Assembly: GCA_963734535.1 (NCBI GenBank)
Contig: CAVTHS010000010.1
Location: forward strand, 288,001-352,000
DNA from: an uncultured Chloroflexia bacterium
Lineage (GTDB): Bacteria; Chloroflexota; Limnocylindria; Limnocylindrales; CSP1-4
DNA length: 64,000 nt
Direction of reading: 5' to 3'
The translations under genes were made by a program, and so were the position numbers. Below, piece after piece: positions 29,157 through 50,346 of this stretch (positions are counted from its first letter, which is position 1; each line of letters opens with the position of its first letter). A model generated the notes under the pieces. The model ran no database searches. It saw only the letters and a program-made list of their open reading frames with translations, and was not told where the DNA came from.

Positions 29157-29170
29157 CTCCGCCTGCTCCC

Positions 29171-30909: not shown

Positions 30910-32927
30910 GATCGTCCTCCTGCGGCGCGGGCTGCGGCCGGGCGGTTGAGCAGGCTTGCCTGCTCCATCCGCCGCTGCAGCGATCTACGGGTCTCGTTGT
31001 GGTGTTGTTCGTCGGTCATGAGGCGCTCGATGGTCGGTCGGTCGTTCGCCCGCTCGGCCTCGCCGAGCTCCACGCGGGTCCAGCGGGTTCGCTCCTCCAG
31101 CCTGTCGAGCTCCAGGCGGAGCAGGCACTGCTCGATCCCCTGTGACGCGACGCGGAGATCCGTGGTGCCGGCATCCGTGCCCGCGTCGCGCCGCTCGAGG
31201 AGCGCGACGAGGAGCGCCTGCGTCTCCGGATCCGCCGCGAGGCGGGCGAAGACACGCTCGGTCGTGTAGGGCGGATCCTCCCGGAGCGCGAGCATCGCGG
31301 TCCAGAGCTCGCGGGCCGGCTGGCTCGGCAGGTCGGCCGGGGCAAGCCGTTCGGCCGTGGCCCCCTGCGTCTCGGGGACCGAGAGGAGAAAGCGGAGCAG
31401 GTCGCGCTCCACCGGGTCGATGGCCCGGAGGACGGCCTTCGGATCGAATGCGTCGGGCGAGGCGAGCACCGATGCCGCCGAGATCCGGCCCTCGCCGGCC
31501 CCGGCCGATCCGCCGCGAGCGGCCTCGGGCGCGCGGTGCAGCGACTCGAGGAGCACGCGCTCCTCCACGCCCGACACCTGGCGGAGCTGCTGGAGGTAGC
31601 CGTCGCGGAGGACCGGGTTCCGGACCGTTCGAAGCGTGGGAAGGATCGCGTCGATGAAACGCGCCCGACCGCCGGTGGTGCGCAGGTCGGCCGATCGGGC
31701 ATGGAACTCGATCAGGTACTCCACGATCGGCGCGGCCGTGCGGATCGCCTCGCGCCACGTGTCGGGCGCGTCACGGATCACCTCGTCGGGATCCTTGCCG
31801 TCCGGCAGCCGGGCAACCCGGACCTCGTCGAGCTCCACGCCCGCGTCGGCCGCCGCGAGCTGGCGCGTCAGCTGCTCCAGGGCGGTCACTCCCAGGGTCC
31901 CGGCACGCTCCCCCGCCGGATCAACGTCGTAGGCAAGCACGATCTTCTTCGCGGCGTAGCGGGTCAGCAGGGCCACCTGGCCCGGCGTGAGCGCGGTGCC
32001 CAGGCTGGCGACCACGTTGTCGAAACCGGCCTGGTGAGCCATGAGCGCGTCCGTGTATCCCTCCACGATCACCGCGATCCCCGACTTCCGGATGGCCGCC
32101 TTGGCGCGGTCCAGCGGGTAGAGCGTGCGGCTCTTGTCGAAGACCGGCGTCGCCGGGGAGTTGAGGTACTTCGGGCCGTCGGGATCCGGGGCGGGCTGGG
32201 CGGCGCGGGCAGGCTCGCCGGCCGCGGGCTGGTTACCGGCGTCCCCAGCGGTCCCGGCCGTCGGCGGCGGCGCCGGCAGGATGCGACCGCCGATGCCCGT
32301 GGCATTGCCCGTCGCGTCGCGGATCGGGAAGAGGACCCGGCCCCGGAAGCGGTCGTAGACGCCCCGCCCGCTCCGGCGCGGCATCGCGAGGCCAACCTCG
32401 GTCAGCTCGGCCGCGCCGATCTGGCGCTTGCGCTCCAACGTGCGGACCAGGGCGTCCCAGTCCGGCGGCGCGAAGCCAAGCTGGGCGCGCTCGATCGACT
32501 CGTCGGTGAAGCCGCGGCCGCGCAGGTAGGCGAGCGCCGCGGCGCCCGTCTCGCTGTTCATCAGGACCGCGTGGTAGAAGGCGAACGAGGTGTCGAGGAC
32601 CTCGTGGAGGCGCTTGCGGTGGGCATCCTCGCGGGAGGTCCGCTCGTCGATCTCCACCCCGGCGCGCTGCGCGAGCCGGCGGAGCGCCTCGGGGAAGGCG
32701 ATCCCGTCGCGGCGCATGACGAACGAGAAGATGTCGCCGCCCTCGCCGCAGCCGAAGCAGTGCCACGTCTCGCGGGCAGGCGTCACGATGAAGCTGGGCG
32801 TCTTCTCGCCGTGGAACGGGCAGAGACCCTTGAGCGTGGTGCCGGCCTTCTTCAGCTGCACGGTCTCGCCGACCACGTCGACGACCGTGAGCTTGCTCTT
32901 GACTTCCGCAGCGACCCCGACGGCCAA
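30906..32927 (-). CDS. dnaG: DNA primase
   Basis: CPFHGEKTPSF...CFGC zinc finger, FRGRVLFPI, PKYLNSP, VEGYTD, YDVDPAG, KDPDE; GGAGG RBS before TTG. Confidence 0.96.
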   Translation of the reverse strand: MAVGVAAEVKSKLTVVDVVGETVQLKKAGTTLKGLCPFHGEKTPSFIVTPARETWHCFGCGEGGDIFSFVMRRDGIAFPEALRRLAQRAGVEIDERTSREDAHRKRLHEVLDTSFAFYHAVLMNSETGAAALAYLRGRGFTDESIERAQLGFAPPDWDALVRTLERKRQIGAAELTEVGLAMPRRSGRGVYDRFRGRVLFPIRDATGNATGIGGRILPAPPPTAGTAGDAGNQPAAGEPARAAQPAPDPDGPKYLNSPATPVFDKSRTLYPLDRAKAAIRKSGIAVIVEGYTDALMAHQAGFDNVVASLGTALTPGQVALLTRYAAKKIVLAYDVDPAGERAGTLGVTALEQLTRQLAAADAGVELDEVRVARLPDGKDPDEVIRDAPDTWREAIRTAAPIVEYLIEFHARSADLRTTGGRARFIDAILPTLRTVRNPVLRDGYLQQLRQVSGVEERVLLESLHRAPEAARGGSAGAGEGRISAASVLASPDAFDPKAVLRAIDPVERDLLRFLLSVPETQGATAERLAPADLPSQPARELWTAMLALREDPPYTTERVFARLAADPETQALLVALLERRDAGTDAGTTDLRVASQGIEQCLLRLELDRLEERTRWTRVELGEAERANDRPTIERLMTDEQHHNETRRSLQRRMEQASLLNRPAAARAAGGRS

Positions 32928-33014
32928 CCTGCCTCCTCGCCCTTCTGCCGTGCCGGCTGAGCTCGTCTGTGCTGCTCGCCTCGCCCGCGAGCGCCGACAG
33001 CCGGACACCGAAAC

Positions 33015-34925: not shown

Positions 34926-37853
34926 ATGCGAACCGTCGGGCTGATCGGTCGCGAGCACGAGGCCAGGGAGCTTCGCGCCGCCGCCTCCGCTGCGAGGCGG
35001 CGGCGCGGCGGCCTGGTCCTCGTCGCCGGAGACGCCGGGATCGGCAAGACAGCCCTCGTCGAGCGGACGCTGGAGGGCCGCCTGCCGATCGTCCTGCGCG
35101 GGGCCGCCCGGGCCTCCGGCTCCGCCCCGTTCGACCCGCTCGTCGCGGCGATCCGGTCCCATCCCCGCTGGCCGGCGATCGCCGCCGAGCTGCTTCGCGA
35201 CGTCCGGCGTCAGCGGCGCGGCCCGGGACGCCATCCGCTCGCTGTTCGGCGAGCTCGCACCCTCGGGTGGCCCGCGCGCGACCGATGCGGTGACGGCGGG
35301 GCCGGCCACCGACGGCGACCCGAACGCGACTCGCGACGCCGTGTGCCGGCTCGTCGTCGAGCTCGCCCGGATCGAGCCGCTGGCGGTCGTTCTCGACGAC
35401 CTGCAGCGCGCCGACCACGCGACGATCGACGCGTTGCCCAGCCTCGCCCGGTCGGCGGCACGGGAGCCGCTGCTGGTCGTCGGGATCTACCGGACCGACG
35501 AGATGCCGCGCTCGAGCCCGGTCCGGCGCCTGCGCGTCGAGCTGCGGCGGGACGGCCGACTGCACGAGATCGCCCTCGGCCCGCTCGACGCCGCGTCGAC
35601 CGCCGCGCTCGCGGCCCGGACCCTCGGCGCCCGACCGGACGACCTCCTGGCCCAACGGCTCTTCGACCGGAGCCAGGGCCTGCCGCTGTTCGTGGAGGAG
35701 CTGTCCGCGGCGCTCCTCGCCGACGAGGCGATCGTGATCGCCGACGGCGTCGCGACGCTCGTCCGCGACGACCTGCCCATCCCGGAGACGCTGCGCGACA
35801 GCATCCTCATCCGCGCCGACGGCATGCCGGCCGCCGAGCGGGAGGCGCTGGCGACGGCCGCGCTCCTCGGCGACGAGGTGGACGCGACGATCGTCGACGA
35901 GCTGGCTGGCGGGGACGACGCCTGGAGGCGCGCCGGGGTCGAGCGCGGGATCCTCGTCGCCCACGGAGAGGGCAGCGTCGCGTTCCGGCACGGGCTCGTG
36001 CGCGAGGTCCTGCTCGACGATCTGCCCTCGGCAGAGCGACGGACCCAGCATCGCCGGATCGCCGAGATCCTCGCGGCCCGCGGCGCGGAGCCGCTCGTCG
36101 TGGCCGAGCACTGGCTCCGCGCGGGCGAGACACACGAGGCCGTCGCCTGGCTCCTCTCCGCAGCCGAGGCGTCACGCCGCGTCCACGCGTACCGGGATGC
36201 CGCGAGCGCCTACCGGCGGGCGCTCGACGAGGACCGGGGCACGCTCGATTCGCCGCTCGACGTCCTCGAGCGCCTCGCCGTCGTGCCTCGAGCTGTCCGG
36301 GGGCCTCGGCGAGGCGGCGAGGACATGGGAGACGGCCGCCGCGTCGCGGAGGCGGACGGACGGCCCGATCTCGCCGGGGAGGACCAGCGGCGTCGCGCTC
36401 GGGTGCTCGAGGTCCAGGGCCGCTGGGCGCGGGCGATCGAGGCCCGACTTGCGGCCGTCACGGGGTTCGAGGCGGCGGGGCGTCCGGCGGAGGCGGCGAC
36501 GGAACGGCTGGCCGCCGCGGCCCATCTCCGGTCGGCGGCGGACTTCACGGCGGCGCTCGGGCTCCTGGACCTCGCCCGCACGGAGGCGCGCGAGGCAGGT
36601 CGGGCGGACCTCGAGGCGCGGGCGATCGGGCTCGAGGGGAACGTCCTCGCCCGGATGGGACAGGGCCGACGAGGGTCTCCCGCTCGTTCGCCAGGGCCTG
36701 TCGCTCGCGCTCGACGGCGGGCACACGACGGCGGCGGCCGAGCTGTTCCAGCGCCTCGCCGACTCCCTGGAGCACGCGGGCAGCTACGACCCGGCGCAGG
36801 GCGGCATACCTCGAAGGCGCCGACTACTGCCGGACGCGGTCCATCGAGCTCGACGGCCCAGCTCTGCCTGGCCTGCATGTCGGTGGTGCTGTGGCAGACT
36901 GGCGACTGGTCGGGGGCCGAGCGGACCTCGCGGGAGGTGATCGCCTCGGCGGATGCGGCGCAGCACGCGCGCGCCGTCGCGGAGGGGATCCTCGGGATCG
37001 TGGCCGCGCTCCGCGGCAGCGCCGGCCGGGCGCGGCCGCACCTCGAGGCGTCCCTGCATGCCGCCCGCCGGATCGAGCTTGCGGCCATGGAGCTCATCTC
37101 GAGCTGGGGCCTTGCCCTCTGCGATCGCCTCGATGGCGACGAGGCCGGCGCGGTCGAACGGTGCCGCCGGCTCCTTGCGCGCTGGGAGCGCACCGAGGAG
37201 CGGCACTACGTCGTGCCGGCCCTCCGCTGGGCCGCGACCGTGTTCGCCGAGCAGAGCGACGCGGCGGGGGTCCGTGCGTGCGCCGACGCGCTCGCGCGGA
37301 TCGCCGCCCAGACCGCGCAGCCCGAGGCCATCGCGGCGCTGGCGACGACGCTCGGCGAGGCCGCCTCGCTCGAGGGCGACGCGGACGCCGCGGCGCGCAC
37401 TTCGCCAGCGCGCTCGACGCCATCTCCGTCCGTGACCTGCCGCTCGAGCGCGCGGAGATCGGACGGCGCGCCGGCGTCGCCCTGGTCCGCGTCGGCCGCC
37501 GGGACGACGGGGTCGGGGCGCTGGTTGCGGCCGCCCGCACGGCACGCCGCCTGGGTGCCACCCCGCTCGGCGTCATGATCGCGGCGGACCTGGCTGCCCT
37601 CGGCGAGCCGGTCGAGCGCCGGCTCGGCAGCCGGGAGGCGCGTCGGCTGGCCGACCGGGGCCTGACCCGGCGGGAGCTCGAGGTGATCCGGCACGTCGGG
37701 CACGGCCTCACGAGCCGGGAGATCGGTGAGGCGCTGTTCATCAGCCGGCGCACCGTCGAGATGCACGTCGGCAGCGCGCTCACGAAGCTCGACTGCCGGA
37801 CGCGCGCCGAGGCGGTCCAGCGGGTCGCCACGCTCGGCTTGCTGGCGACCTAG
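34926..37853 (+). CDS. large ATP-binding LuxR-family (LAL/MalT-like) regulator; about 7 apparent frameshifts
   Basis: [15 protein letters not shown] Walker [11 protein letters not shown] Walker [13 protein letters not shown]-like helices, LTRRELEV...[16 protein letters not shown]. Confidence 0.88.
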
Positions 37854-38050: not shown

Positions 38051-38743
38051 ATGAACACCGAAGGGAAGAGCGGGGCCCGCTGGATCGGCCTTGGCGAAGC
38101 GAGCGCGATGCTCGGGATCGCGCCCCCGACGCTGCGCCGGTGGGCCGACGACGGCAGGATCCCGGTCTTCACCACACCAGGTGGCCATCGCCGGTTCTCC
38201 CGGACGGCCATCACGGCGCTGCTTCCCGTGGATCGCGCCCGCCGGCCGACGCTGGCGCGTCTGGGCGCCTCGCCCGAGCGCATCGCTCGGGCCTACCGGG
38301 GCCTGCATGGAGCCGGAGACCCGGCGCACGCCTCCTGGATCGACGGGCTGTCTCCCGAGCGCCGGATCATCTTCCGGGACCGCGGTCGCGCGCTGGTCGC
38401 CGTCCTGCTCGTGTACCTGGACGCGCCGGATGCGGCGGCGGCGAACGTCCGCCTGCAGGATGCGAAGCGGCTGGCGGCAGCCTACGGGCGCGAGGTCGCG
38501 GAACTGGGATGGTCGATGACCGAGGCCGTCGAGAGCTTCCTGCGATTCCGCGCGCCATTCACCGAGGCCCTGGCGGCAGTGGCCCGCCGCCGCGGGCTCG
38601 ACACGCGAGAGGCGACCGATCTCCTCTCCCATGCCGAGGCGGCCACCGACTCACTCCTCGTTGCGCTCGTGACTGGCCATTCGCTGGCCACCGGGGAGCG
38701 CGATGTCTCCCGCGCCAGGTCCCAGGCCCTGTCTGCAGAATGA
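38051..38743 (+). CDS. HTH_17 (excisionase/MerR/BldC-like) regulator with all-helical C-terminal domain
   Basis: LGEASAMLGIAPPTLRRWADDGRIPVFTTPGGHRRF; stop overlaps the hemA ATG. Confidence 0.85.
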   Translation: MNTEGKSGARWIGLGEASAMLGIAPPTLRRWADDGRIPVFTTPGGHRRFSRTAITALLPVDRARRPTLARLGASPERIARAYRGLHGAGDPAHASWIDGLSPERRIIFRDRGRALVAVLLVYLDAPDAAAANVRLQDAKRLAAAYGREVAELGWSMTEAVESFLRFRAPFTEALAAVARRRGLDTREATDLLSHAEAATDSLLVALVTGHSLATGERDVSRARSQALSAE

Positions 38744-39905
38744 GCTCGGCACGCGTCGTCGCGCCTCGCGCAGGCCCCGGTCGCCAGTCGACCATGGCCG
38801 GCATCCGCGCGATCACGGCCGATGCGGCAGTGATGGATTCCGCGGCCGTGACCGTCTCGCGGCTGCGCTGCGTGCGGCCGGCCTTGACGGCGGCCTCCTC
38901 CTCGAGACATGTCACCGGGTGGAGTACTACGGCGCCGGGACGCCCCGCGCGCTGGCTCGCGAGCTGCCAGCCAGGGGTGCCCGCGTCCTCGACGGCGTGG
39001 CCGCTGTGCGCCACCTGCTGCGCGTCGCCGCCGGGCTCGAGAGCGCGGTCGTCGGCGAGGACCAGATCCTCTCGCAGCTGCGCCGAGCCGCGGACGAGCT
39101 CGAGCCGGGGTCGACCGACCCCGTGCTCCACCGCCTTGCGCAATGCGCCCTGGGCCTCGGGAGACGCGTCCGGCGCACGGCGCGACCACGGGAGCGCGGC
39201 CTGGCCTCGACGGCGCTCACCTGGCTTGCGCCACGGATCGGCGGCTGGCCGCACGCCCGGATCCTCGTCGTCGGGGCGGGAGGCATGGGGACGGCGGCGG
39301 CGATCGCGGCGCGGCGCCGCGGCTCCGATGTCACCGTCGCGACCCGCACGCCACGGCAATTGGCCGGGGGCCTTTCGGCGATCGGCCTCGACGCCGCGGC
39401 GCGACTGGCCCCCGAGGTCGATGGAATCGTCGTTGCCCTCGGCGGGCCGTGGCTCCAGCTCGGCACGTTGACGACGCCGCTGCCGCCGATCGTGGACCTG
39501 TCCGCGCCCCCCGCCGTGCCCGCCACGATCCGCGAGACATCGACGACCATCGACATCGACGGGCTGTTCACGCTCGGTCGCGACGCTCGGCACATCTCCT
39601 CCGTCTTCGTCGCGCGGGCCGAGGCGGAGGTCGTCGCCGCCGAAGCCGCATTCCTGCGCTGGGTCGCCTCGCGACCGTCGGCGACAGCCGCGCGACGGCT
39701 TCGCGACCAGGGTCGACGGCACGCCGAGCTGCGGGCAGAAGCCGCGCTGCGCCGGCTCCCGGGCCTCGACGATCGCGGGCAGGCGATCGTGCGACGACTG
39801 GCCGCGCAGGTCGCCGCGGACTTGCTCCACGCCCCGCTGTCCCGGCTCGGCACGGACGCCTCGGGCCAAGCCAACGAGGCGGTCCGAATCCTGTTCGACG
39901 TGTGA
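38740..39905 (+). CDS. hemA: glutamyl-tRNA reductase (frameshift near 38850)
   Basis: ETCHRVEYY, VAAGLESAVVGEDQIL, VVGAGGMG, DLSAP. Confidence 0.88.
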
Positions 39906-40789
39906 TCACGCTCCGGTTGGGAACGCGCGGATCCACGCTTGCGCGAACACAGGCGGGAATCGTCGCCGAGATGCTGGTGAGCCGTGGCTCCCGCGTCGAG
40001 ATCGTGACGATCGTCACCGCGGGCGATGTGCGTGCCGTGGACACCGCGTGGGGCGAGGGAGCGTTCGTCGGCGCGCTGGAGCGGGCGCTCCTCGAGGGGC
40101 GGATCGACCTTGCGACCCATTCGGCCAAGGACGTCCCGCTTGACACGGCGCTGCCCATCGCCGCGTATCCGGTCCGCGAAGAGTCGCGCGACGTCCTCGT
40201 GACGCGCGCCGGGGGGCTCAGCCTCGCCTCGCTGCCCGAGGGTGCCGTCGTGGGCACCGACAGCCCCCGTCGAGCCGGGTTCCTTCGGGCCGAGCGCCCT
40301 GACCTGCGAGTCGTCCCCCTTCATGGGAACGTCGACACGCGACTTCGCCGGCTCGATGCCGGCGACGTCGACGCCCTGATCCTTGCTGCCGCCGGGCTCC
40401 GACGCCTTGGCCTGGCGGATCGCATCGATGTCGTTCTCGACGCCCGTGTGATGCCCCCGGCCCCGGGCCAAGGCGCGCTCGCGGTCCAGGTGCGGAATGG
40501 TGGCGACGACGTCGCCGCGCGCGTCGGTGAGATCGACGACACGGCGGTGCGAGCCGCCGTCGTGTGCGAGCGGGCGACGCTCGCGGCTGCGGGCGGTGGG
40601 TGCCGGGCGCCGCTCGGCGCGACCGCTGAGATCGTCGCCGAGCAGATCCGGCTGACAGCCGGTTTCGTGGCCGAGGATGGGAGGGGCAGGCTCATCGTGG
40701 AGCGGGACGCTCCCCGGACCGATGCGCTGCGGCTGGCCGAGGAGACCGCCTCCGCGTTCCTCGCCGCCGGCTATCGAGGCGGATCATGA
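39902..40789 (+). CDS. hemC: hydroxymethylbilane synthase
   Basis: LGTRGSTLARTQ, HSAKDVP, GNVDTRL, PAPGQGAL, GGGC cofactor Cys. Confidence 0.95.
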   Translation: MITLRLGTRGSTLARTQAGIVAEMLVSRGSRVEIVTIVTAGDVRAVDTAWGEGAFVGALERALLEGRIDLATHSAKDVPLDTALPIAAYPVREESRDVLVTRAGGLSLASLPEGAVVGTDSPRRAGFLRAERPDLRVVPLHGNVDTRLRRLDAGDVDALILAAAGLRRLGLADRIDVVLDARVMPPAPGQGALAVQVRNGGDDVAARVGEIDDTAVRAAVVCERATLAAAGGGCRAPLGATAEIVAEQIRLTAGFVAEDGRGRLIVERDAPRTDALRLAEETASAFLAAGYRGGS

Positions 40790-41565
40790 CCCCCACGGTC
40801 CTGTCGACACGACCTGAAGGAGATCGGGACGCGCTGGTCACGGCCCTCCGAGCCGCCGGCCTCCACTGCCTGGCGGTCCCGACCGTTGCCACGGTCGCGG
40901 TCGGGGGAACGGACCTGCTCGAGGCCCTCGCGTGCCTGCCGGACGGCGGCTGGGTGGGGGTCACGAGCCGGGCGGGCGCGCGTGCCGCGCTCGACGCGCT
41001 CCGGGACGCGGGCAGAAGTCCCGCAGACCTGCGGTGGGCAAGTGTGGGTTCGGCGACGACGTCCACGCTCGCCGGTGCAGGCGTTCGCGTGGAGGTCGAG
41101 GCCGCGGACTCGGGCGGCGCAGCCCTGGGCCACGCCATCGAGCCGGGGCGGGATCTGAGCGGGATCCAGCTCGTGCTGCCCCGCTCGGATCTCGCCTCCG
41201 CGGACCTGACAACGGTGCTCCGCCGCCGCGGAGCCACGGTCTACGACGTCGTCGCATACCGGACGATCGAGGGTCCGCCTGCGAACCTCCTGTCGCTGCG
41301 CCGCGCGCTCTCGCAGCCGGACCTGGCCGCCATCGTCTTTGCCTCGGGATCGGCCGTCCGGGGGCTCGTCGCCCTCGCCGGAGATGCCGCCGCGGCCGCG
41401 CTGGGCCGGACAGCCCTCGTCTCCATCGGCCCGTCGACGAGCCGCGTCCTCCGCGGCCTCGGCATGGAGGTGGCCGCCGAGGCCGCGGCGCCGACCGTCT
41501 CCGGTCTCGTCGAGGCCGTCCTCGCGACCATCCCCGCTCCCCTCCGCGATCGCGAAAGGTCGTAA
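40786..41565 (+). CDS. hemD: uroporphyrinogen-III synthase
   Basis: VLSTRP, VTSRAG, VGSAT, VAYRT, FASGSAV, SIGPST. Confidence 0.9.
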   Translation: MTPTVLSTRPEGDRDALVTALRAAGLHCLAVPTVATVAVGGTDLLEALACLPDGGWVGVTSRAGARAALDALRDAGRSPADLRWASVGSATTSTLAGAGVRVEVEAADSGGAALGHAIEPGRDLSGIQLVLPRSDLASADLTTVLRRRGATVYDVVAYRTIEGPPANLLSLRRALSQPDLAAIVFASGSAVRGLVALAGDAAAAALGRTALVSIGPSTSRVLRGLGMEVAAEAAAPTVSGLVEAVLATIPAPLRDRERS

Positions 41566-41567
41566 CC

Positions 41568-42596
41568 GTGACTTCGATCATCGACCCCAGCCCAGGCGCG
41601 CGATCTGCCGCCTCGGATCTCCCCGTCAGCCACCGCCTCCGGCGCCTCCGCACAACCCCGGCGATGCGCTCGCTCGTGCGCGAGACGCGCCTGGTGCCCG
41701 CCCGACTCGTCGCGCCGCTGTTCGTTCACGACGTGCCGGGCACCTCTCCGATCGAGAGCCTTCGCGGTCAGCAACGGCTCGACGTCCCGGCGACCGTGGC
41801 GACGGCTCGCGAGCTGGCCACGCTCGGGGTCGGCGGCGTGCTCCTGTTCGGGATCCCGGCGGTCAAGGACCCGAATGGCATCGCCGCCGCCGATCCGGAA
41901 GGGCCGGTTGCACGCGCTCTGCGGGCGCTTCGCGAGGCGACGCTCCCGCTCGTGCTCATCGCCGACGTCTGCCTCTGCGAGTACACGACTCACGGCCACT
42001 GCGGGGTGCTCGACGGCGAGCGGATCGCGAACGACGCGTCGCTCCCTCGCCTCTCTGATGCCGCCGTCACGTACGCGCGCGCGGGCGCCGACATCGTCGC
42101 CCCGTCCGCGATGCTGGACGGCCAGGTTGCGGCGATCCGGGCCGGCCTCGACCATGCCGGCCTGGTCGATACGGCGATCCTCGCCTATGCCTCGAAGCAC
42201 GCGTCGGGCCTCTACGGCCCGTTCCGTCATGCCGCCGGTTCGATGCCCGCGTTCGGCGACCGCCGCTCCCACCAGATGGACCCGGCGAATGGTCGCGAGG
42301 CACTTCGCGAGATGGCCACGGACGTCGCCGAGGGCGCCGACATGCTCATGGTGAAGCCCGCCATCACCTCGCTCGACCTGCTGGCCCGCGCCCGTGAGCG
42401 CTTCGATGTCCCGCTGGCGGCGTACCAGGTCTCGGGAGAGCTGGCGATGCTGGAGGCCGCGGCCGAACGTGGCTGGCTCGACCGCCGGCGCGTGGGCCTG
42501 GAGCTGCTGACCGCGCTTGCCCGCGGGGGCGCCGACCTGCTGATCACGTACCTCGCGGCCGACGCGGCCCGGTGGCTGGAGGATCCCGATGCCTGA
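41568..42596 (+). CDS. hemB: porphobilinogen synthase (Zn-type)
   Basis: RLRRLR, DVCLCEYTTHGHCG, APSAMLDG, MVKPA, AYQVSGE. Confidence 0.96.
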   Translation: MTSIIDPSPGARSAASDLPVSHRLRRLRTTPAMRSLVRETRLVPARLVAPLFVHDVPGTSPIESLRGQQRLDVPATVATARELATLGVGGVLLFGIPAVKDPNGIAAADPEGPVARALRALREATLPLVLIADVCLCEYTTHGHCGVLDGERIANDASLPRLSDAAVTYARAGADIVAPSAMLDGQVAAIRAGLDHAGLVDTAILAYASKHASGLYGPFRHAAGSMPAFGDRRSHQMDPANGREALREMATDVAEGADMLMVKPAITSLDLLARARERFDVPLAAYQVSGELAMLEAAAERGWLDRRRVGLELLTALARGGADLLITYLAADAARWLEDPDA

Positions 42597-43368
42597 TTCG
42601 TACGTTCATGCGCTGGCCCTCGGCCTCGACCCGGCGTGGCGTCGCCTCCCGGCGGATGAGCGGCGCGAGACGGCCGCCGCATTTGCGGAGGCGGTCGCGA
42701 CCGACGAACGCGTGCGGACGGAGACGTATTCCATGATCGGGCTCAAGACGGGCGTCGACCTGCTCGTCTGGCGGCTCGGCCCTTCGTTGGACGTGCTTGA
42801 GGTGGCGGCAGCGCGGGCGCTTCGGACCGGGATTGGTGGCTGGCTGTCCGTCCGGCAGAGCTTCGTCGGGCTGATCCGTGGCTCGCAGTACGTGGCCAGG
42901 CCGAGCAGCCAGGAGCAGTCCCTGTTCGACGGCGACCGGTCCCGCTACCTGATCGTCTATCCGTTCACCAAGTCGACCGACTGGTACCTCACTGCGAAGG
43001 AGGTCCGCCAGGGCTCGATGAACGAGCACATGAAGGTAGGGCACGACTACCCGCAGGTTCGCCAGCTGCTGGCCTACTCGTTCGGCCTCGACGACCAGGA
43101 CTTCCTGGTGGCCTACGAGACCGATGATCTGCCGGCGTTCTCGTCGCTCGTCCACAACCTCCGCAGCACCGAAGGTCGCCGATCGACGGTCCGCGACACG
43201 CCGATCCTCGCCGCCATCCACCGCCCGATCGGCGAGATCCTGGCGATGCTCGGCGCAGCCGAGAACGGGGTGCCGGCGACGCGAGGGACGGGTGCGGCTC
43301 CCTCCGCCACCTCGGGCCGGGTCGAGGCGCCCGTCCTGGCCGGGCCTGGCGCCGGGGAGGACCGTTGA
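42589..43368 (+). CDS. hemQ: coproheme decarboxylase (chlorite dismutase family, ChdC/HemQ)
   Basis: YPFTK (catalytic Tyr/Lys), DWY, proximal EH, distal Gln in VRQLL..SFGLDD; inside the heme operon. Confidence 0.85.
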   Translation: MPDSYVHALALGLDPAWRRLPADERRETAAAFAEAVATDERVRTETYSMIGLKTGVDLLVWRLGPSLDVLEVAAARALRTGIGGWLSVRQSFVGLIRGSQYVARPSSQEQSLFDGDRSRYLIVYPFTKSTDWYLTAKEVRQGSMNEHMKVGHDYPQVRQLLAYSFGLDDQDFLVAYETDDLPAFSSLVHNLRSTEGRRSTVRDTPILAAIHRPIGEILAMLGAAENGVPATRGTGAAPSATSGRVEAPVLAGPGAGEDR

Positions 43369-44648
43369 CGGAGCTCGGCCCGATTTCGGACGACCTTCGC
43401 GCGCGCGCCGCGGACCTCTTTCCCGGCGGGGTCAACAGCCCCGTCCGCGCATATCGCGCTGTCGGCGGCGCTCCGCCGATCCTGGTGCGTGGCGCGGGCG
43501 CCACTGTGTGGGACGCGGACGGGACCGCGTACCTCGACTACGTCGCGGCGTTCGGACCGCTCCCCCTCGGCCACGGTCACCCGGCGGTGGTCCAGGCGAT
43601 CCACGACGAGGCTGTCAACGGGGGTCCCTTCGGCGCGACGGGGCCGCTCGAGGTGGAGCTCGGACAGCGTATCCGCGAGGCGATGCCGTCCGTGGAGCGG
43701 CTGCGGTTCGTGAGCTCCGGGACCGAGGCGGTGATGAGCGTGCTTCGCGTCGCTCGGGCGGCGACAGGTCGCGACCTGGTGCTCAAGTTCGAGGGCGGCT
43801 ACCACGGCCACGCGGACGCCCTCCTGGCGAAGGCGGGATCCGGGCTTGCGACCCTTGCGATGCCCGCCAGCGGCGGCGTGCCCCGAGCCGTCGCCGGCAC
43901 GACTCGCCTCGCCCGCTACAACGACCTCGAGAGCGTGCGCGACGCGTTCGAGGCCGAACCGCACGGGATCGCGGCGGTCATCGTCGAGCCGGTCGCGGCG
44001 AACATGGGCGTCGTACCGCCGGTCACGGGGTTCCTCGACGGCCTGCGGGAGCTGGCGACCCGGTATGGCGCGCTTCTTGTCTTCGACGAGGTCATCACTG
44101 GGTTCCGCGTCGCACGCGGCGGTGCCCAGGCCTGGACAGGGGTGAGGCCGGACCTGACGACGCTCGGCAAGGTCATCGGGGGCGGGATGCCCGTCGGCGC
44201 GTATGGCGGCCGGGCGGACCTCATCGACCTCGTCGCGCCTGCCGGGCCCGTCTACCAGGCCGGGACCCTCTCCGGACACCCGGTCGCGATGGCAGCCGGG
44301 ATCGCGGCCCTGGACGCCCTGACCGGCGAGGCGTACGCACGGCTCGAGTCGCTGGGTGCGCTGCTCGAGGCAGGCCTCTCGGACGCGGTGCACCTGACCG
44401 CCCGGGCGGCGAGCGTGGCCCGCGTGGGCTCGCTCCTGACGCTGTTCTTCCGCCCGTGGGCGCCGCGGGACTTCGACGAGGTCGCCGAGTGCGACGGCGA
44501 GGCATACGCGCGGTTCTTCCGGGCGATGCGCGAGGAGGGAATCCTGCTCCCGCCGTCCCAGCAGGAGGCGTGGTTCGTGTCGACCGCCCACACCGAGGCG
44601 GATGTGAAGCGCACGATCGAGGCGGCCGGCCGGGCGCTGGCGACATGA
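43365..44648 (+). CDS. hemL: glutamate-1-semialdehyde 2,1-aminomutase
   Basis: PGGVNSPVRA, SSGTEA, GYHGHAD, FDEVITGFR, GKVIGGGMP, YQAGTLSG. Confidence 0.96.
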   Translation: MTELGPISDDLRARAADLFPGGVNSPVRAYRAVGGAPPILVRGAGATVWDADGTAYLDYVAAFGPLPLGHGHPAVVQAIHDEAVNGGPFGATGPLEVELGQRIREAMPSVERLRFVSSGTEAVMSVLRVARAATGRDLVLKFEGGYHGHADALLAKAGSGLATLAMPASGGVPRAVAGTTRLARYNDLESVRDAFEAEPHGIAAVIVEPVAANMGVVPPVTGFLDGLRELATRYGALLVFDEVITGFRVARGGAQAWTGVRPDLTTLGKVIGGGMPVGAYGGRADLIDLVAPAGPVYQAGTLSGHPVAMAAGIAALDALTGEAYARLESLGALLEAGLSDAVHLTARAASVARVGSLLTLFFRPWAPRDFDEVAECDGEAYARFFRAMREEGILLPPSQQEAWFVSTAHTEADVKRTIEAAGRALAT

Positions 44649-45709
44649 GCGCCCAATTCCTCCAGGCCTGCCGGCGGGAGCCGGTCGATGCGACCCCGGT
44701 CTGGTTCATGCGCCAGGCCGGACGCAGCCTCCCCGAGTACCGGGCCATCCGCGAGCGGGCCAGCCTGCTCGAGATCACGCGGGATGCCGCGCTGTGCGCC
44801 GAGGTGACCCTGCAGCCGGTGCGGCGGCTGGGCGTGGATGCCGCGATCATCTTCGCGGACATCACGTCGCCACTCCCGGGGATGGGCGTGGCGCTCGACA
44901 TCCACGACGGCGTCGGCCCGGTGATCGCGGATCCAGTCCGCTCGATGGCGCAGGTCGACGCGCTCCGGGCGTTCGACGCCCGCGCTTCCGTCGGGCCCAT
45001 GCTCGAGGCGATCTCGATCGCGTCCCGGGAGGCGGGCGTCCCGGTGATCGGCTTCGCCGGGGCGCCCTTCACGCTGGCGTCGTACCTGGTCGAGGGCCGG
45101 TCCGCGCGTGACCCGCTTCGTCTCAAGACACTGATGCGGGCGGAGCCGGCGACGTTCGACGCGCTCCTCGCCCGGATCGTCGACATGACGGTCGCGTACC
45201 TCGCCGCGCAGGTCGCGGCCGGGGCGCACGTCGTGCAGCTGTTCGACTCCTGGATCGGGTCGCTCGCGCCCGCCGAATACGACGAGCACGTCGCCCCGCA
45301 CGTTCTCCGCCTGTTCGCCGGCCTCGCCGGGCTCGGTGTCCCATCGATCCACTTTGGTGGCGGGGCTTCCGGTCTGCTCGAACGCCTGGCGGCGGCCGGC
45401 GGCGACGTGATTGGCCTCGACTGGCGAGTCGAGCTTGGCGCGGCGTGGGCACGGATCCCGGGACGAGCGATCCAGGGGAACCTCGACCCGTCGGCGCTCC
45501 TCGGGCCATTCGACGTGACGGCCGCCCAGGCACGGCTGATCCTCGAGGCGGCTGCGGGACGGCCGGGGCATGTCTTCAACCTTGGGCATGGCGTGCTGCC
45601 CGCGACCGACCCCGACGACCTCCGTCGGCTGGTCGACCTCGTGCACGAGCACGCGGCCGTCGCCGCCACCGTGCCCGAGGCAGACGCCCGATTCTCGTCC
45701 AGGCCATGA
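44645..45709 (+). CDS. hemE: uroporphyrinogen decarboxylase (canonical copy)
   Basis: PVWFMRQAGR, AIIFADI, GAPFTLASYLVEG, QLFDSW, QGNLDP, FNLGHG. Confidence 0.95.
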   Translation: MSAQFLQACRREPVDATPVWFMRQAGRSLPEYRAIRERASLLEITRDAALCAEVTLQPVRRLGVDAAIIFADITSPLPGMGVALDIHDGVGPVIADPVRSMAQVDALRAFDARASVGPMLEAISIASREAGVPVIGFAGAPFTLASYLVEGRSARDPLRLKTLMRAEPATFDALLARIVDMTVAYLAAQVAAGAHVVQLFDSWIGSLAPAEYDEHVAPHVLRLFAGLAGLGVPSIHFGGGASGLLERLAAAGGDVIGLDWRVELGAAWARIPGRAIQGNLDPSALLGPFDVTAAQARLILEAAAGRPGHVFNLGHGVLPATDPDDLRRLVDLVHEHAAVAATVPEADARFSSRP

Positions 45710-46734
45710 CGGGCCGCACGAGGATGCTCGCTGCCGCCCGCGGCGAGCCTGTCGACCGAACGCCAGTCTGGTTCATGCGCCAGGCGGGCTCCGTGGTGCC
45801 GGCGTACCGACGGATGCGCGAACGTTGGTCCGTGCTGGAGATAGCGCGCACACCAGAGCTGTGCGCGGAAGCCACCTTGGCCGCCGCCGAGACATTCGGG
45901 ACGGACGCGGCCGTGATGTTCGCGGACGTGCTCCTCCCGCTGGGCCCGATGGGCGTGGAGTTCGAGCTGACGACCGACGGCCCGGTGATCGCCAATCCCG
46001 TCCGGTCCGCAGCCGACGTGTCCCGCCTCCGGCGCATCGACCCAGAGGCGGACGCCGGCTTCGTCCTCCAGGCGATCCGCCATGTCCGCCGGGCGATGGG
46101 TGGCTCGCGGGCGGTGGTCGGCCTGGCGGGCGGACCCTTCACGCTGGCCGCCTATCTCGTCGAGGGCGGCGCCTCCCGCGACTACGTGAAGACCCGGGCC
46201 TTCATGCACGCCGACCCGGTCGCCTTCGGCAGTCTGCTTGACCTGCTCGCGGACGTCACGGGTGCCTACCTCGCGGCGCAGTCACGCGCGGGGGCGGACC
46301 TCGTGCAGCTGTTCGACACGCATGCCGGGCAGCTGGACCCCGCGACCTATGCGGCCGTCGTCGCGCCCCGCACCCGGCGCGTCCTCGATGCCGTCCCCTC
46401 CGAGACGCCGACCATCCATTTCGCCATCCATGCTGGGTCGCTCCTGCCCGAGATGGCCGCAGCCGGTGGCGACGTGATCGGCATCGACCACCGCCAGTCG
46501 CTGGCACACGCGCGCACGGTTCTCGGGTCCAACCGCGCGGTCCAGGGAAACCTGGACTCGGCCCGCCTGCTGGCCGGCTGGGAAGCCGTCCGGAGCGGGG
46601 CCGACGCGATCCTGGCGGCGGCTGGCGATCGCGGTCACATCTTCAACCTGGGCCACGGGGTTGCCCCCGAGACGGATCCCGGCCTTCTCGGCGCCCTCGC
46701 GGCGCACGTGCACGAACGGAGTCAGCGCGCATGA
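45706..46734 (+). CDS. hemE: second uroporphyrinogen decarboxylase paralog (RQAGS variant)
   Basis: PVWFMRQAGS, FADV, GGPFTLAAYLVEG, QLFDTH, QGNLDS, FNLGHG; ATGA overlaps on both sides. Confidence 0.88.
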   Translation: MTGRTRMLAAARGEPVDRTPVWFMRQAGSVVPAYRRMRERWSVLEIARTPELCAEATLAAAETFGTDAAVMFADVLLPLGPMGVEFELTTDGPVIANPVRSAADVSRLRRIDPEADAGFVLQAIRHVRRAMGGSRAVVGLAGGPFTLAAYLVEGGASRDYVKTRAFMHADPVAFGSLLDLLADVTGAYLAAQSRAGADLVQLFDTHAGQLDPATYAAVVAPRTRRVLDAVPSETPTIHFAIHAGSLLPEMAAAGGDVIGIDHRQSLAHARTVLGSNRAVQGNLDSARLLAGWEAVRSGADAILAAAGDRGHIFNLGHGVAPETDPGLLGALAAHVHERSQRA

Positions 46735-47660
46735 GCTTTGGCGTTCTCCTCATGACGTACGGGTCGCCGAGAGACCTGGACGACGTCCCGCGGTACCTTG
46801 CCGCGGTGCGCGGGGGCCGTCCCGCCGACCCGGATCTCGTCACGGAGTTCCGGCGGCGCTACGAGGTGATCGGCGGGTCGCCCCTCGTCGAGATCACCGA
46901 GCGCCAGGCCGCGGCCCTCGAGGCTGCCCTGGGAGGGCGGGCGATCGTGCGGGCCGCAATGCGCTTCTCCGACCCGTCGATCGAGACGGCACTTGCGACG
47001 CTCGCTGCGCTCGGGGTCGCCGACGTCGCAGCGATCGTCATGTCTCCGCAGTACAGCCCCCTCCTGATGGGCGGGTATGGGCGTGCCATCGATGCGGCGG
47101 TGGCGAGCCTCGGCACTGGCGCGCCGTGCGTGCGCGTGGCCGGGGCGTGGCACCTCGAGCCCGGCTTCGTCGGCGCGCTCGCAGAGCGCGTCACCGAAGC
47201 GCTCAACCGCGTCCCTGCCGCCGCGCGCAAGACCATCCCGGTCCTTCTTACTGCGCACAGCCTCCCGCGTCGCGTGGCGGAGCAGGAGCCCGACTATCTC
47301 GGGCAGCTGGCCGCGACCGCGGGCGCAATCGCGGACGCTGCAGGTCTTGCCGCCGACCGTTGGCGGTTCTGCTGGCAGAGCGCGGGCCACGAGCCCGGCG
47401 AGTGGATGTCGCCCGACTTTGCTGACCTCATGCCGCTGCTGGCGGCCGAGGGACACCGGCGCGTCCTCGTGGCCCCCATCCAATTCCTGGCGGACCACCT
47501 TGAGATCCTCTACGACGTGGCGATCGGGGCCCGCGAGCAGGCCGAGGCCGCGGGCCTGGAGTTCGACCGCATTGAGTCCCTGAACGTCGCGCCTCCTTTT
47601 GTCGGGGCCCTCGCGGCCGTCGCCGAGAGGACCCTCGCCCGGGTCGATTCGGGCGCCTGA
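46731..47660 (+). CDS. hemH: coproporphyrin ferrochelatase (CpfC/HemH)
   Basis: LLMTYGSP, RRRYEVIGGSPL, TAHSLP, WQSAG, FLADHLEILYD. Confidence 0.95.
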   Translation: MSFGVLLMTYGSPRDLDDVPRYLAAVRGGRPADPDLVTEFRRRYEVIGGSPLVEITERQAAALEAALGGRAIVRAAMRFSDPSIETALATLAALGVADVAAIVMSPQYSPLLMGGYGRAIDAAVASLGTGAPCVRVAGAWHLEPGFVGALAERVTEALNRVPAAARKTIPVLLTAHSLPRRVAEQEPDYLGQLAATAGAIADAAGLAADRWRFCWQSAGHEPGEWMSPDFADLMPLLAAEGHRRVLVAPIQFLADHLEILYDVAIGAREQAEAAGLEFDRIESLNVAPPFVGALAAVAERTLARVDSGA

Positions 47661-47742
47661 TCGAGTCGCCGACCGGCGTGTTGGGCAGCACCTGGAGGAC
47701 GACATCGCGATCTTCGGGTCGTGTCTCCCGGACCACGGTGGA

Positions 47743-48321
47743 TCAGATGTGCTGCGCCCCCATCGACCCGGTCGCGTCGACCGCGGGTCCCGTGGCGCCC
47801 TCGCCCCAGGCCGGATCGGCGATCCGCTCTCCGGCCCGCTCCGCGTCGACCCGACGGACCCGGAGCGCCTGGTCGACGCGGAGCAGACGGAAGCCCTGCT
47901 GGTCGCCGCCCGTGAACCGGGCCGCAACCGCGTGCATCGGGACCAGTTCGGGCCGGTCGACCCCGTAGACCCGCCCCTCGTGCACGATGGTGGCGGACCC
48001 GCTCGCCAGCACGTTCTGGAGCCAGTTCGTGCGTGACCCGTACACGAGCGCGATCAGGAATCCGTCGTCGGCGGCCACGACCCCGACGGGCGTTTCGTAC
48101 GCTCGACCCGAGGTCCGGCCGCGATGTCGGATCACGGACGCGTAGGCTCCGGGCGTGCCCGCCGATCGCATCTGCTTCGGGTTTATGATCGCGCGCTGGA
48201 GCCGGATGAGGGGGCTGAGAACGAGCGAGGACTTCGCCCTCATCCCCAGCACGAACACGACCGCGATCACCAGGAGTCCCATGGCGAGGGCGCCCGCGAA
48301 GGTCGCCATTTGCATCAACAT
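47743..48321 (-). CDS. nitroreductase-family deazaflavin (F420)-dependent oxidoreductase with N-terminal TM
   Basis: IRHRGRTSGRAYETPV, IALVYGSRTNWLQNVLASG. Confidence 0.8.
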   Translation of the reverse strand: MLMQMATFAGALAMGLLVIAVVFVLGMRAKSSLVLSPLIRLQRAIINPKQMRSAGTPGAYASVIRHRGRTSGRAYETPVGVVAADDGFLIALVYGSRTNWLQNVLASGSATIVHEGRVYGVDRPELVPMHAVAARFTGGDQQGFRLLRVDQALRVRRVDAERAGERIADPAWGEGATGPAVDATGSMGAQHI

Positions 48322-48411: not shown

Positions 48412-49095
48412 ATGACGAAGCCGCTGACGCCGTCCGCTCGAACCGCGGCTCGCCGGAGACCGCTCAGCCGGGACCGCGTCCTCCGGGCGGCCATCCGGCT
48501 GGCGGACGAGGGCGGCCTCGGTTCCGTCTCGATGCGCAAGCTCGGCCAGGTGCTGCGGGTCGAGGCGATGTCCCTCTACAAGCACGTGGCCAACAAGGAC
48601 GACATCCTCGACGGCATCGCCGATCTCGTCGTGGGCGACTTCGAGGTGCCGTCCCGGGCCGTCGACTGGAAGATGGCCGTCCGCAGGAGTGCGATCTCGG
48701 CCCACCAGGCCCTTCTGCTCCACCCGTGGGCCAGCAGCCTCATCGAGTCCCGGCTCTCCACCGGTCCAGCGAGGCTGCGCTACCTGGACGCCATGATCGG
48801 CATCCTCTCCGCCGAGGGATTCGCGCTGCCGGTGGTTGTTCGCGCGATCATGGCGCTGGACAGCCACACCTACGGCTTCGTGCTCCAGGAGATGGCCTGG
48901 CCGTTCGAGACCGAGAACGCTCCGGCGATGGCGGCGACCTTCGCCCGGGGTCTTCCCGCGGGCGAGTATCCGAACCTCCTCGCGATGGCCGAGATGGCGG
49001 CGACGACTCATGGCGGCGCCATGGTCGACTTCGAGTTCGGGCTGGATCTCATCCTCGACGGCCTCGAGCGGCTCCGGGACACCGCCGGACACTGA
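48412..49095 (+). CDS. TetR/AcrR family regulator (TetR_C type)
   Basis: LSRDRVLRAAIRLADEGGLGSVSMRKLG...SLYKHV; FEFGLDLILDGL. Confidence 0.93.
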   Translation: MTKPLTPSARTAARRRPLSRDRVLRAAIRLADEGGLGSVSMRKLGQVLRVEAMSLYKHVANKDDILDGIADLVVGDFEVPSRAVDWKMAVRRSAISAHQALLLHPWASSLIESRLSTGPARLRYLDAMIGILSAEGFALPVVVRAIMALDSHTYGFVLQEMAWPFETENAPAMAATFARGLPAGEYPNLLAMAEMAATTHGGAMVDFEFGLDLILDGLERLRDTAGH

Positions 49096-49196: not shown

Positions 49197-49712
49197 TCAG
49201 CAATCGAAGACGAACCAGCACAGCTCGTTGCGCAGCCGCTGGTCGTCGAGCACCAGGTCCCGAATCTCGTGGGGGAGCCGGGCGCGCTGCCAGAGGCACT
49301 CCAGGCGGCCGGCCTCCACGCGCTCATCGTCAAGCGCAGCCGCCCGCGCCGCCCGGATCGCGTAGGCGGCGGCACCGAGCTCGTGAGCCGCCACATGGCC
49401 CACCGCCGCGGCCTGGCCGGCAGCGTACGCGGCGTGGCGGGCGGCTCCAACCAGGCCGCTGGCCGCCGCGTTTGCATGGCCAGCCGCCGTGCGGGCCTCC
49501 GCCCAGGTGATCTCACCCCGCGCCCAGGCACGCCCGAGCTCGATCGCGCGTCGGGGACGGTCGTCCTGGGGCCGCGCCTGCTCGAAGTGATGGAGCACGT
49601 GCTGGGCGCAGTCGGCCGCCCACATCGCGAGCAGGTGATGATCGTCGTCCCCGAGGCTCCCGCCGCGACGCACGGTGATGAACCGAGGATCACGGATCCT
49701 GGGGAGGATCAC
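49197..49712 (-). CDS. Imm5-like putative immunity protein
   Basis: WAADCAQHVL...DDRPRRAI...AARHAAYAAGQAAAVGHV...ECLWQ. Confidence 0.75.
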   Translation of the reverse strand: MILPRIRDPRFITVRRGGSLGDDDHHLLAMWAADCAQHVLHHFEQARPQDDRPRRAIELGRAWARGEITWAEARTAAGHANAAASGLVGAARHAAYAAGQAAAVGHVAAHELGAAAYAIRAARAAALDDERVEAGRLECLWQRARLPHEIRDLVLDDQRLRNELCWFVFDC

Positions 49713-49753
49713 AGCCTGCCCAGCCGTGGCAGGCCGCGGGGCATGCTTCAGGT

Positions 49754-49990
49754 TCAGCGGGCCCGGTGCCCGGCGATCCTGCGGGTGCCGATGCGGAGAT
49801 GGAGAAGCTGCCTCACCGCGGCCCAGGGGCTCTGCGGGGCGGGGCTCCCGACGCGTCGCGCGCCGGACGGTTCGGTGGAGCGCTCCGGCGAGGCAACCCT
49901 CGCCATCCGCTCGCGGGCCATCTGTGCCCGCTGCTCGTCCTGGTACCGCTTGACCTGCCGGAACGTGTCTTCGGGTGTCATCGGGAACAT
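49754..49990 (-). CDS. small hypothetical protein (78 aa)
   Basis: GGAGG RBS before ATG; helical N-terminus MFPMTPEDTFRQVKRYQDEQRAQMARER. Confidence 0.5.
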   Translation of the reverse strand: MFPMTPEDTFRQVKRYQDEQRAQMARERMARVASPERSTEPSGARRVGSPAPQSPWAAVRQLLHLRIGTRRIAGHRAR

Positions 49991-50346
49991 CGTCTCGCCC
50001 TCCATTCGGCGTCCGTGTCTCTGCGGACATCGTGGGCGTTCGACCGAGAGAAGGGTTATCGAGGCGCGGACAGCCAGCGCGTCGATCTCGAGGCGCCGCC
50101 ACGGTGGTCGGGGCGACCATCGGGGTGTCGAATGGGTGACGCCTGTCAACCATGCTTCGCCCGGGGCACGGCGAGGTACGACTTCTGTCACGACGGCACG
50201 GGCTTCATCACACGGGCCGACCTTCGCCGCGCGGCCCGGTCGGGCATCGCCAGCGGTCAGGTCACGGCCACGACGCGCAGCTCGGGAGAGAGCTGGACGA
50301 CTTCAGTAGTTGCGGACCTGCCCGGACCCCTCAGGAAGTCGGGGTG

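Follow-up and report, generated by a model that had tools for sequence, protein, structure and literature searches.

A second, divergent uroporphyrinogen decarboxylase next to the ferrochelatase gene in heme clusters of Limnocylindria-like Chloroflexota

Introduction

Uroporphyrinogen decarboxylase (UroD, the product of hemE) is usually present as a single, highly conserved and cofactor-free enzyme, which removes four carboxyl groups in one pocket. Here, we describe hemE', a divergent second hemE that lies between hemE and the ferrochelatase gene hemH in the heme biosynthesis cluster of an uncultured Chloroflexota bacterium. The cluster is found on contig C10 of the genome, in a stretch of 64,000 nucleotides that was analysed as a whole and is referred to as the window. 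The products of hemE and hemE' are called E (or E1) and E', and E2 denotes the clade to which E' belongs. Our comparisons lead to the tentative view that E2 proteins are specialised decarboxylases working alongside E1.

Two groups of described enzymes are relevant to this locus. The flavin adenine dinucleotide (FAD) enzymes CgoX (HemY) and CgoN (YtpQ) are unrelated to UroD. They are the two enzymes known to oxidise coproporphyrinogen III, the step for which no gene was found in the genome carrying the window, and neither enzyme was found there. The fold of E', by comparison, is that of a cofactor-free decarboxylase, and has no flavin-binding motif. According to the available portion of one source, CgoN is almost confined to Bacillaceae (PMC10965808). 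A 2026 review holds, in the portion available, that the known enzymes of three pathways cover all known heme-synthesising organisms (PMC13564367). With respect to UroD itself, Arg37, Arg41 and His339 of UROD are named as substrate-binding, and Phe154 and His220 as contacting coproporphyrinogen, in the accessible part of PMC3510221. Plants likewise have two UroD paralogs per organism, HEME1 and HEME2 (PMC13004804, accessible part). These differ from the pair described here in being eukaryotic and non-tandem. Our literature search turned up no paper on hemE paralogs arranged in tandem in bacteria, and none on coproporphyrin pathways that lack CgoX in Chloroflexota.

Results

The heme cluster of the window runs in one direction from 38.0 to 47.7 kb. 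It consists of a gene for a MerR/HTH_17 regulator followed by hemA-C-D-B, a hemQ-like gene, hemL, hemE, hemE' and hemH (Table 2). An earlier note on this DNA had read the gene order as hemA-C-D-B-Q-L-E-E'-H, with ATGA overlaps on either side of hemE'. Translations and profile matches bear this out, and the description given there is correct as far as sequence can show. The reading frames of hemE, hemE' and hemH are all intact upon translation, and ATGA stop/start overlaps at positions 44645, 45706 and 46731 form the last three junctions of the cluster. The hemH gene encodes the sole ferrochelatase of the genome, which amounts to 3.2 Mb in 14 contigs (72% G+C, 89.9% complete, 7.1% contamination). 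Contigs from one sequencing run span hemE/hemE' (45116–46376) and hemE'/hemH with the DNA downstream (46380–48207). This run is probably that of the source sample and hence lends no independent support; it does show that a second assembler joins the genes identically.

E and E' are 50% identical and both match Pfam family PF01208 over its full length. The scores are 389.4 bits for E and 357.7 bits for E', the latter covering profile positions 3–345 of 346. Both proteins also exceed the cut-off of 302.95 bits for the hemE equivalog family TIGR01464 (379.5 bits for E and 328.8 bits for E'). The corrinoid methyltransferases MtaA and CmuA belong to the same Pfam superfamily, and E' matches TIGR01463 with 92.7 bits compared with 67.9 bits for E. 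We rejected E' as a member of that group, the score being far below the cut-off of 235.4 bits.

We then compared individual residues. E' has the sequences RQAGS and FDTH at the sites where E has RQAGR and FDSW. The residues R25, R38, D74, Y150 and H317, which we take to be R37, R50, D86, Y164 and H339 of human UROD, are retained in E'. In an alignment of 15 sequences, the columns of R25, D74, Y150 and H317 are invariant, and the same letters are found in the solved bacterial UroDs 2INF, 4WSH and 6W2O. The second substrate-binding Arg of RQAGR is missing from E', where S29 stands in its place. S29 and L140 of E' are presumably equivalent to human Arg41 and Phe154. At those two places, all three solved bacterial UroDs have the second Arg of RQAGR and the pocket Phe. 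The alignment of E' scores 274.8 bits with 2INF and 204.3 bits with 1R3Q. Hence, E' resembles canonical HemE/UroD proteins (B. subtilis 2INF and human UROD 1R3Q) in its full-length match, its TIGR01464 score and its Asp, Tyr, His and first Arg. It differs from them in having Ser for the second Arg of RQAGR, Leu for the Phe that is invariant in the GF(A/S)G strand, and other changes specific to its clade. We know of no loss of Arg41 in plant HEME1 or HEME2. The translation and alignment agree with the earlier description of E' as a full-length, diverged protein that keeps the catalytic Asp, Tyr and His and has RQAGS for RQAGR. The FDTH motif, which had also been put forward as an anomaly, falls within normal variation. 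Thr occurs at this site in 6W2O (FDTW), and human UROD has a His (His220) at the fourth place of the motif.

To place E' among its relatives, we searched 401 genomes of the family, which is Limnocylindria-like Chloroflexota as judged from the source names of the nearest proteins and records. All of these genomes are related metagenome bins, and the counts given below are not independent events. HemE is present in 163 of the 401 genomes, many of which have two adjacent matches. Among 36 congeners searched with PF01208, 17 have a single full-length HemE (398.8–413.8 bits), and the window genome is the only one with two. In the protein database, there is a tight group of sequences 64–81% identical to E'; members at 68–81% share RQAGS/A and FDTHA. 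Orthologs of E' at 64–81% identity occur in other genera. Among the matches listed for genome and metagenome contig collections, almost all are ordinary HemEs; one locus (L048) encodes a protein 64% identical to E'.

Two trees were built, one of 51 rows with IQ-TREE and one of 165 rows with FastTree. The rows of the larger tree come from 127 genomes, that is, 125 of the 163 HemE-positive family genomes together with G002 and the outgroup G060. The unpublished genomes G145, G199, G251 and G400 and some further HemE-positive genomes are omitted from the tree, these four being counted in the tallies for 401 genomes. The second HemE matches of G135, G361, G377 and G393 fell outside the retrieved stretches and are unclassified.

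Both trees agree. Clade A comprises the HemE of type I clusters (A1; the cluster types are described below) and the upstream tandem copy (A2), which includes E of the window. Clade B comprises the HemE that stands alone in type II clusters (B1, 43 rows) and the downstream copies (B2, equivalent to E2, 39 rows), which include E'. In the 51-row tree, the Shimodaira-Hasegawa-like approximate likelihood ratio test (SH-aLRT) gives values of 97 (clade B) and 99 (E2). In the 165-row tree, support is 100 for clade B and 99 for B2. B2 is nested within B1 in the larger tree, with B1 rows diverging before B2. Judged from these trees, E2 is an old clade, spread across many genera and derived from a HemE that natively adjoined the ferrochelatase gene of type II clusters. 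A clade-A copy is also present in all 39 E2 genomes (of the 127 on the tree) and none has E2 alone; this copy is split over two frames in G415 and is a partial row in G232, G283 and G389. Thus, the phylogeny proposed earlier as a check on E' places it in an old, full-length clade found in 39 of 127 genomes, and not among ordinary recent duplicates.

The altered residues extend across the clade. Of 38 E2 rows, 28 lack the second Arg of RQAGR: 23 have G at this site and 5 have S, and the other 10 keep R. The residue is R in 42/42 B1 rows and in 79/79 clade-A rows that have a letter there. Of 150 representatives from the wider HemE family, 141 show the motif, and 138 of these have R as well. In the 119 protein clusters nearest to E', the residue is other than Arg in 61, and E2 is therefore common in (soil) metagenomes. 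At the DNA level, a codon pattern for the variant motif matches 30 of the 401 family genomes; the reversed control matches none. The derived E2 group differs further at columns that are 92–100% conserved in clades A and B1. These changes are F140 to I, L or V, A143G, G240 to V or A, P60A, F111 to V, L or I, and R330 to D or A. The G-type subclade of E2 has, in addition, G318A, L320P and P321R.

Purifying selection acts on E2 as strongly as on E. Pairwise ratios of nonsynonymous to synonymous substitution rates (dN/dS) among related genomes are 0.14–0.23 for E' orthologs and 0.16–0.30 for E1. For the two closest pairs, the values are 0.09 and 0.13 for E2 compared with 0.16 and 0.17 for E1. The earlier note had named decay of a strain-specific duplicate as one outcome that would count against it; the ratios for E' are like those for E, and E' is neither strain-specific nor decaying.

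Cluster layouts were obtained by mapping the operon proteins and HemY onto 28 loci. Two types were found. Type I clusters have the order hemA-C-D-B-L-E-H1-x-hemY, where the ferrochelatase H1 is 39–48% identical to that of the window. Type II clusters have the order MerR-hemA-C-D-B-Q-L-[E]-E-H2, without hemY, and H2 is 52–100% identical to the ferrochelatase of the window. The hemB gene is present in both types when the open reading frames (ORFs) are read directly. Of the 36 full E2 rows, 33 have an H2-type hemH within 400 bp downstream, and in two others the contig ends too soon to hold one. After B1, such a gene is found in 40 of 43 rows, the remaining three having no room. In sum, 73 of the 74 clade-B rows with room downstream are followed by an H2-type gene. 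Downstream of clade-A rows lies either an H1-type hemH (41 rows) or E2. The B1 proteins are thus the closest relatives of E2 and occupy the same place, directly upstream of an H2-type hemH. They differ from E2 in keeping RQAGR and the conserved pocket columns, and in being the sole HemE of their genome. Because it is the sole HemE, B1 must be a working decarboxylase; E2 is never the only HemE of a genome.

The congener G019 has a HemE 84% identical to E of the window, followed by H1 and by a hemY in three frame pieces. The window genome has E' and H2 in place of H1 and hemY. In two other genomes, G415 and G115, a type I cluster is accompanied by a compact H2 module, in which E', HemQ and HemH are 79–82% identical to those of the window. 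These genomes, with a complete E1-H1-hemY cluster and the extra module (G415, L217 7324–11934; G115, L219), have two glutamyl-tRNA reductases, two UroDs and two ferrochelatases. Gene x of the type I cluster is, at L218 10573–10983, a 136-amino acid ORF without a Pfam match in the H1-hemY gap of ~1.3 kb. Other type I clusters have H1-hemY gaps of similar size.

A gene for a MerR-type regulator adjoins hemA in 27 of the 28 loci (20/20 and 7/8 by tblastn) and in both cluster types. It is likely to encode a heme-operon regulator of the family. No conserved gene was found downstream of hemH between the clusters; the sole conserved neighbour is this regulator gene, upstream of hemA. One neighbour shared with the G415 and G115 modules proved to be the sigma-70 factor gene.

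No complete gene set for the coproporphyrin-dependent pathway was found in the window genome. UroD is encoded twice, and ferrochelatase and a HemQ-like protein are present; CgoX and CgoN were not found. For HemY/CgoX, the best match to TIGR00562 in this genome is 30.8 bits, confined to the FAD motif (cut-off 97.85 bits). Using the HemY of a congener as the query, tblastn gave short matches only, of at most 135 amino acids and with a best E-value of 0.001; those inspected lie on the N-terminal FAD-binding part. Searches of the same genome for CgoN/DUF1444, HemJ and HemF found none, and there was no match to HemN_C. The absence of hemY, hemN and hemF that the earlier note described for the operon thus extends to profile and tblastn searches of a genome that is 90% complete.

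Other candidates for the oxidase were examined and rejected. The Flavodoxin_5 proteins reach at best 36.3 bits as HemG, for which the cut-off is 142 bits. Three CrtO/CrtI-like flavoproteins score well under every cut-off. One of these (L254) is present in 13/13 hemY-positive genomes of genus g8 and absent from five hemY-negative ones, so it does not track the absence of hemY. A 424-amino acid amine-oxidase-like ORF on contig C7 was set aside because of its neighbour. We recognised the ORF that follows it, by eye, as DUF1365-like, and presume the arrangement to be that of cyclopropane-fatty-acid gene clusters.

We next consider hemY across the family, where it was found in 91 of the 401 genomes (E-values up to 1e-15). 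Table 1 shows how it is distributed over the 126 family genomes on the tree; the outgroup G060 was outside the hemY search.

Table 1. Presence of hemY in family genomes on the tree, by HemE complement.
HemE complement	Genomes	hemY+	hemY-
A1 only	40	40	0
A2 only	4	4	0
A1 + E2	3	3	0
A2 + E2	35	10	25
G093 (basal A + E2)	1	0	1
B1 only	43	2	41

Among the 79 genomes whose clade-B HemE occurs without a clade-A copy or with one of the A2 type, hemY could not be found in 66 (41/43 B1-only, 25/35 A2+B2 and G093). At least 17 of those 66 genomes are at least 90% complete, and incompleteness therefore cannot explain the pattern. In a panel of 40 genomes examined for ferrochelatase, an H1-type gene is present in 19/19 hemY-positive genomes. 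Only H2 is present in 21/21 hemY-negative ones, the window genome included. H1 lies on the same contig and within ~3 kb of hemY in 13 of the 19. Hence, HemY travels with H1, one gene away, and genomes whose only module is that of clade-B HemE with H2 lack HemY with or without E2. A specific tie between the E and E' pair and the absence of hemY is not supported. Where a clade-B HemE is the sole copy and E2 is lacking, 41/43 genomes are also without hemY, and 13/39 E2 genomes are hemY-positive, including those of three among the four proteins closest to E'. Replacement of HemY by E and E' is likewise not supported as a rule.

Discussion

The explanation that we favour is that E2 is a specialised (sub- or neofunctionalised) UroD partner of E1, with a less cationic and reshaped pocket. 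It may well be right, and we hold it tentatively, as something a little short of probable; the anatomy, phylogeny, co-occurrence, selection and substitutions described above are shown, and the activity, substrate preference and dimerisation that it implies are inferred. On this explanation, the E2 clade would have arisen within one family of Limnocylindria-like Chloroflexota, from a HemE natively adjoining an H2-type ferrochelatase. A canonical E1, of clade A, placed upstream could have freed the native copy to specialise. The residues predicted to hold and protonate the macrocycle (R25, R38, D74, Y150 and H317) would have been kept. The carboxylate-binding Arg (the R41 equivalent, now S, G or A) and the invariant pocket Phe (the F154 equivalent, now L, I or V) would have been lost. 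E2 would still bind porphyrinogen and may act after or beside E1, alone or as an E1/E2 dimer, on intermediates that carry less charge after partial decarboxylation, or on the product itself. Coproporphyrinogen would then be passed on towards H2.

Several points weigh against this explanation. The substrate preference and dimerisation of E2 are guesses; given that solved UroDs are homodimers, pairing would be expected of any two UroD proteins. Loss of the substrate-binding Arg and pocket Phe could equally mean that E2 is a non-catalytic binder. The Arg is retained in ten E2 rows, so the clade is not defined by its loss. At 72% G+C, the dS values of 0.7–0.9 are near saturation and the dN/dS ratios are hence rough. 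The large tree was made by FastTree only. Finally, G415 and G115 carry E' apart from E1, in a separate MerR-hemA-hemQ-E'-hemH module. This arrangement is as compatible with an alternative isozyme under its own regulation as with a partner of E1.

Other explanations draw on many of the same observations. E2 could be a largely non-catalytic porphyrinogen-binding subunit or carrier, forming a dimer with E1 or docking on H2 and handing over coproporphyrin(ogen). This accords with the two lost pocket residues, with the canonical copy that always accompanies E2 (39/39), and with the position of E2 directly upstream of hemH in 33/36 rows, by an ATGA overlap in the window. We consider it rather unlikely, because the Asp, Tyr, His and first Arg are retained in E2, under purifying selection like that on E1, and a mere carrier would not need those residues. 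The separate modules of G415 and G115, away from the E1-H1-hemY cluster, point instead to an ordinary UroD isozyme that serves regulation or dosage, in an alternative terminal module hemA-hemQ-E2-hemH used under other conditions. Its score above the TIGR01464 equivalog cut-off would suit such a role, and plants too keep two UroD genes (PMC13004804, accessible part). An isozyme of this kind would not be expected to change consistently at columns that are 92–100% conserved in other HemEs and near-universal in the wider family, or never to occur alone in a genome; we regard it as unlikely. That E' is a decaying or strain-specific duplicate, with hemY merely missing from an incomplete bin, is most improbable. 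The genome is indeed 89.9% complete and the only one among 36 congeners with two full-length matches, and the E2 of another genome (G182) has an in-frame TAG that splits it into two reading frames. However, the ORF of E' is intact, its dN/dS is low, it has orthologs 64–81% identical in other genera, and hemY likewise could not be found in 66 of the 79 relevant clade-B genomes, including the at least 17 that are at least 90% complete. For E', this explanation is largely refuted.

The absence of HemY requires separate consideration. Because genomes lack hemY with or without E2, the oxidation gap is a trait of the cluster type. E2 alone is therefore no explanation of it; the absence is a trait of every genome whose only module is that of clade-B HemE with H2. 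It has been suggested that E2 covers the missing step, and one could extend this to clade-B HemE generally, which with H2 would supply or bypass the coproporphyrinogen oxidation normally due to HemY. All 67 hemY-less genomes (of 126) have a clade-B HemE and all 44 clade-A-only genomes have hemY. The ferrochelatase panel divides in the same way, as do the window genome and its congener G019, and no CgoN, HemJ, HemF or true HemG was found in the window genome. This support is distributional only and comes from mutually related genomes. Moreover, 41 hemY-less genomes do without E2, B1 differs from clade A only conservatively and has no new catalytic-type residue, and UroD has no redox cofactor. 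H1 and hemY are one gene apart in their cluster, so that their linkage may be purely physical. Hence, this explanation is weakened and we judge it distinctly unlikely. A broader version is possible though doubtful, namely that clusters with a clade-B HemE and H2 run a coproporphyrin-type pathway without CgoX or CgoN, with a so far unknown oxidation of coproporphyrinogen III tied to the module. Such an oxidation might be carried by clade-B HemE (with E2 as its specialised form), by H2 or by HemQ through a peroxidase-like side activity, or the enzyme could be a new one encoded elsewhere. The oxidation may be spontaneous, peroxidatic, performed by the module, or due to an unlinked new enzyme.

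A widespread and selected second UroD with a rebuilt pocket amounts to a natural experiment. It could show how four decarboxylations, or the hand-over of an unstable product, can be divided. The 67 genomes of one family in which hemQ and hemH occur without any known oxidase for coproporphyrinogen contradict the view, taken in the available portion of PMC13564367, that known enzymes cover all heme-synthesising organisms. These genomes make the search for another oxidase concrete.

Gene calls and further observations

The features of the window are listed in Table 2. Some assignments need comment. HemA scores 100.3 bits on TIGR01035, under the cut-off of 209.55. The hemC domain starts at residue 335 of ORF 38909–40789, and the hemB domain corresponds to residues 234–548 of ORF 40932–42596. 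The hemQ-like protein scores 103.8 bits on NF042928 (HemQ_actino), below the cut-off of 235, and for this reason is assigned by family and context.

Table 2. Features in the window, with positions counted from its first nucleotide.
Feature	Position	Strand	Basis and remarks
Housekeeping sigma-70 factor and DnaG primase	28740-33008	-	~6-10 kb upstream of cluster, ~5 kb from MerR gene
LuxR-family regulator, 975-aa ORF	34926-37853	+	N-terminal AAA_16 ATPase domain; upstream of cluster
MerR/HTH_17-type regulator, 230 aa	38051-38743	+	Pfam HTH_17 40.1 bits, MerR 35.4 bits
hemA (glutamyl-tRNA reductase), start codon unsettled	38703-39905	+	GlutR_N 78.1 bits, GlutR_dimer 37 bits
hemC (hydroxymethylbilane synthase), start approximate	39911-40789	+	Porphobil_deam 210.1 bits; TIGR00212 259.9 bits (cut-off 164)
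hemD (uroporphyrinogen-III synthase)	40786-41565	+	PF02602 HEM4 137.8 bits
hemB (porphobilinogen synthase), start approximate	41631-42596	+	PF00490 ALAD 412.6 bits; NF006762 414 bits (cut-off 297)
hemQ-like, chlorite dismutase family, presumed coproheme decarboxylase	42589-43368	+	PF06778 161.3 bits
hemL (glutamate-1-semialdehyde aminomutase)	43365-44648	+	NF000818 565.8 bits (cut-off 398)
hemE (E1, E), canonical uroporphyrinogen decarboxylase, clade A, 354 aa	44645-45709	+	TIGR01464, PF01208, RQAGR and FDSW
hemE' (E2, E'), paralogous UroD, predicted remodelled pocket (S29, L140, G143, A240, T205-H206), 342 aa	45706-46734	+	TIGR01464, clade B2
hemH (H2-type ferrochelatase), 309 aa	46731-47660	+	PF00762 216.3 bits; TIGR00109 174.7 bits (cut-off 124.6)
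Imm-5-like putative immunity protein adjoining TetR-family regulator	49197-50153 and 48412-49095	- and +	114.5 bits (Imm-5-like); downstream of hemH, unrelated to heme cluster

The presence of the sigma-70 factor and DnaG genes supports the contig being chromosomal.

Broken reading frames were seen in three relatives. The hemY of G019 is in three frames (L039 ~18577–19958; C2:121576–122957) and E1 of G415 is in two (L218 8610–9624). The in-frame TAG in E2 of G182 lies in C2:236093–237109. Each could be a true pseudogene or an indel error in a long-read assembly.

HemE is patchy in the family (163/401 genomes). In genus g1, it is present in 11/31 genomes, and those without it include near-complete genomes in two contigs. 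In a sister family with small genomes (1.0–1.4 Mb), HemE was found in 1/24. Heme auxotrophy seems common in the family.

The window genome (G000) has a third, partial match to the URO-D family outside the window, at C10:167889–168623 (83.6 bits, profile positions 105–343). URO-D matches of 60–100 bits recur several times per genome in relatives. Such partial matches are probably methyltransferase-type proteins and not HemE.

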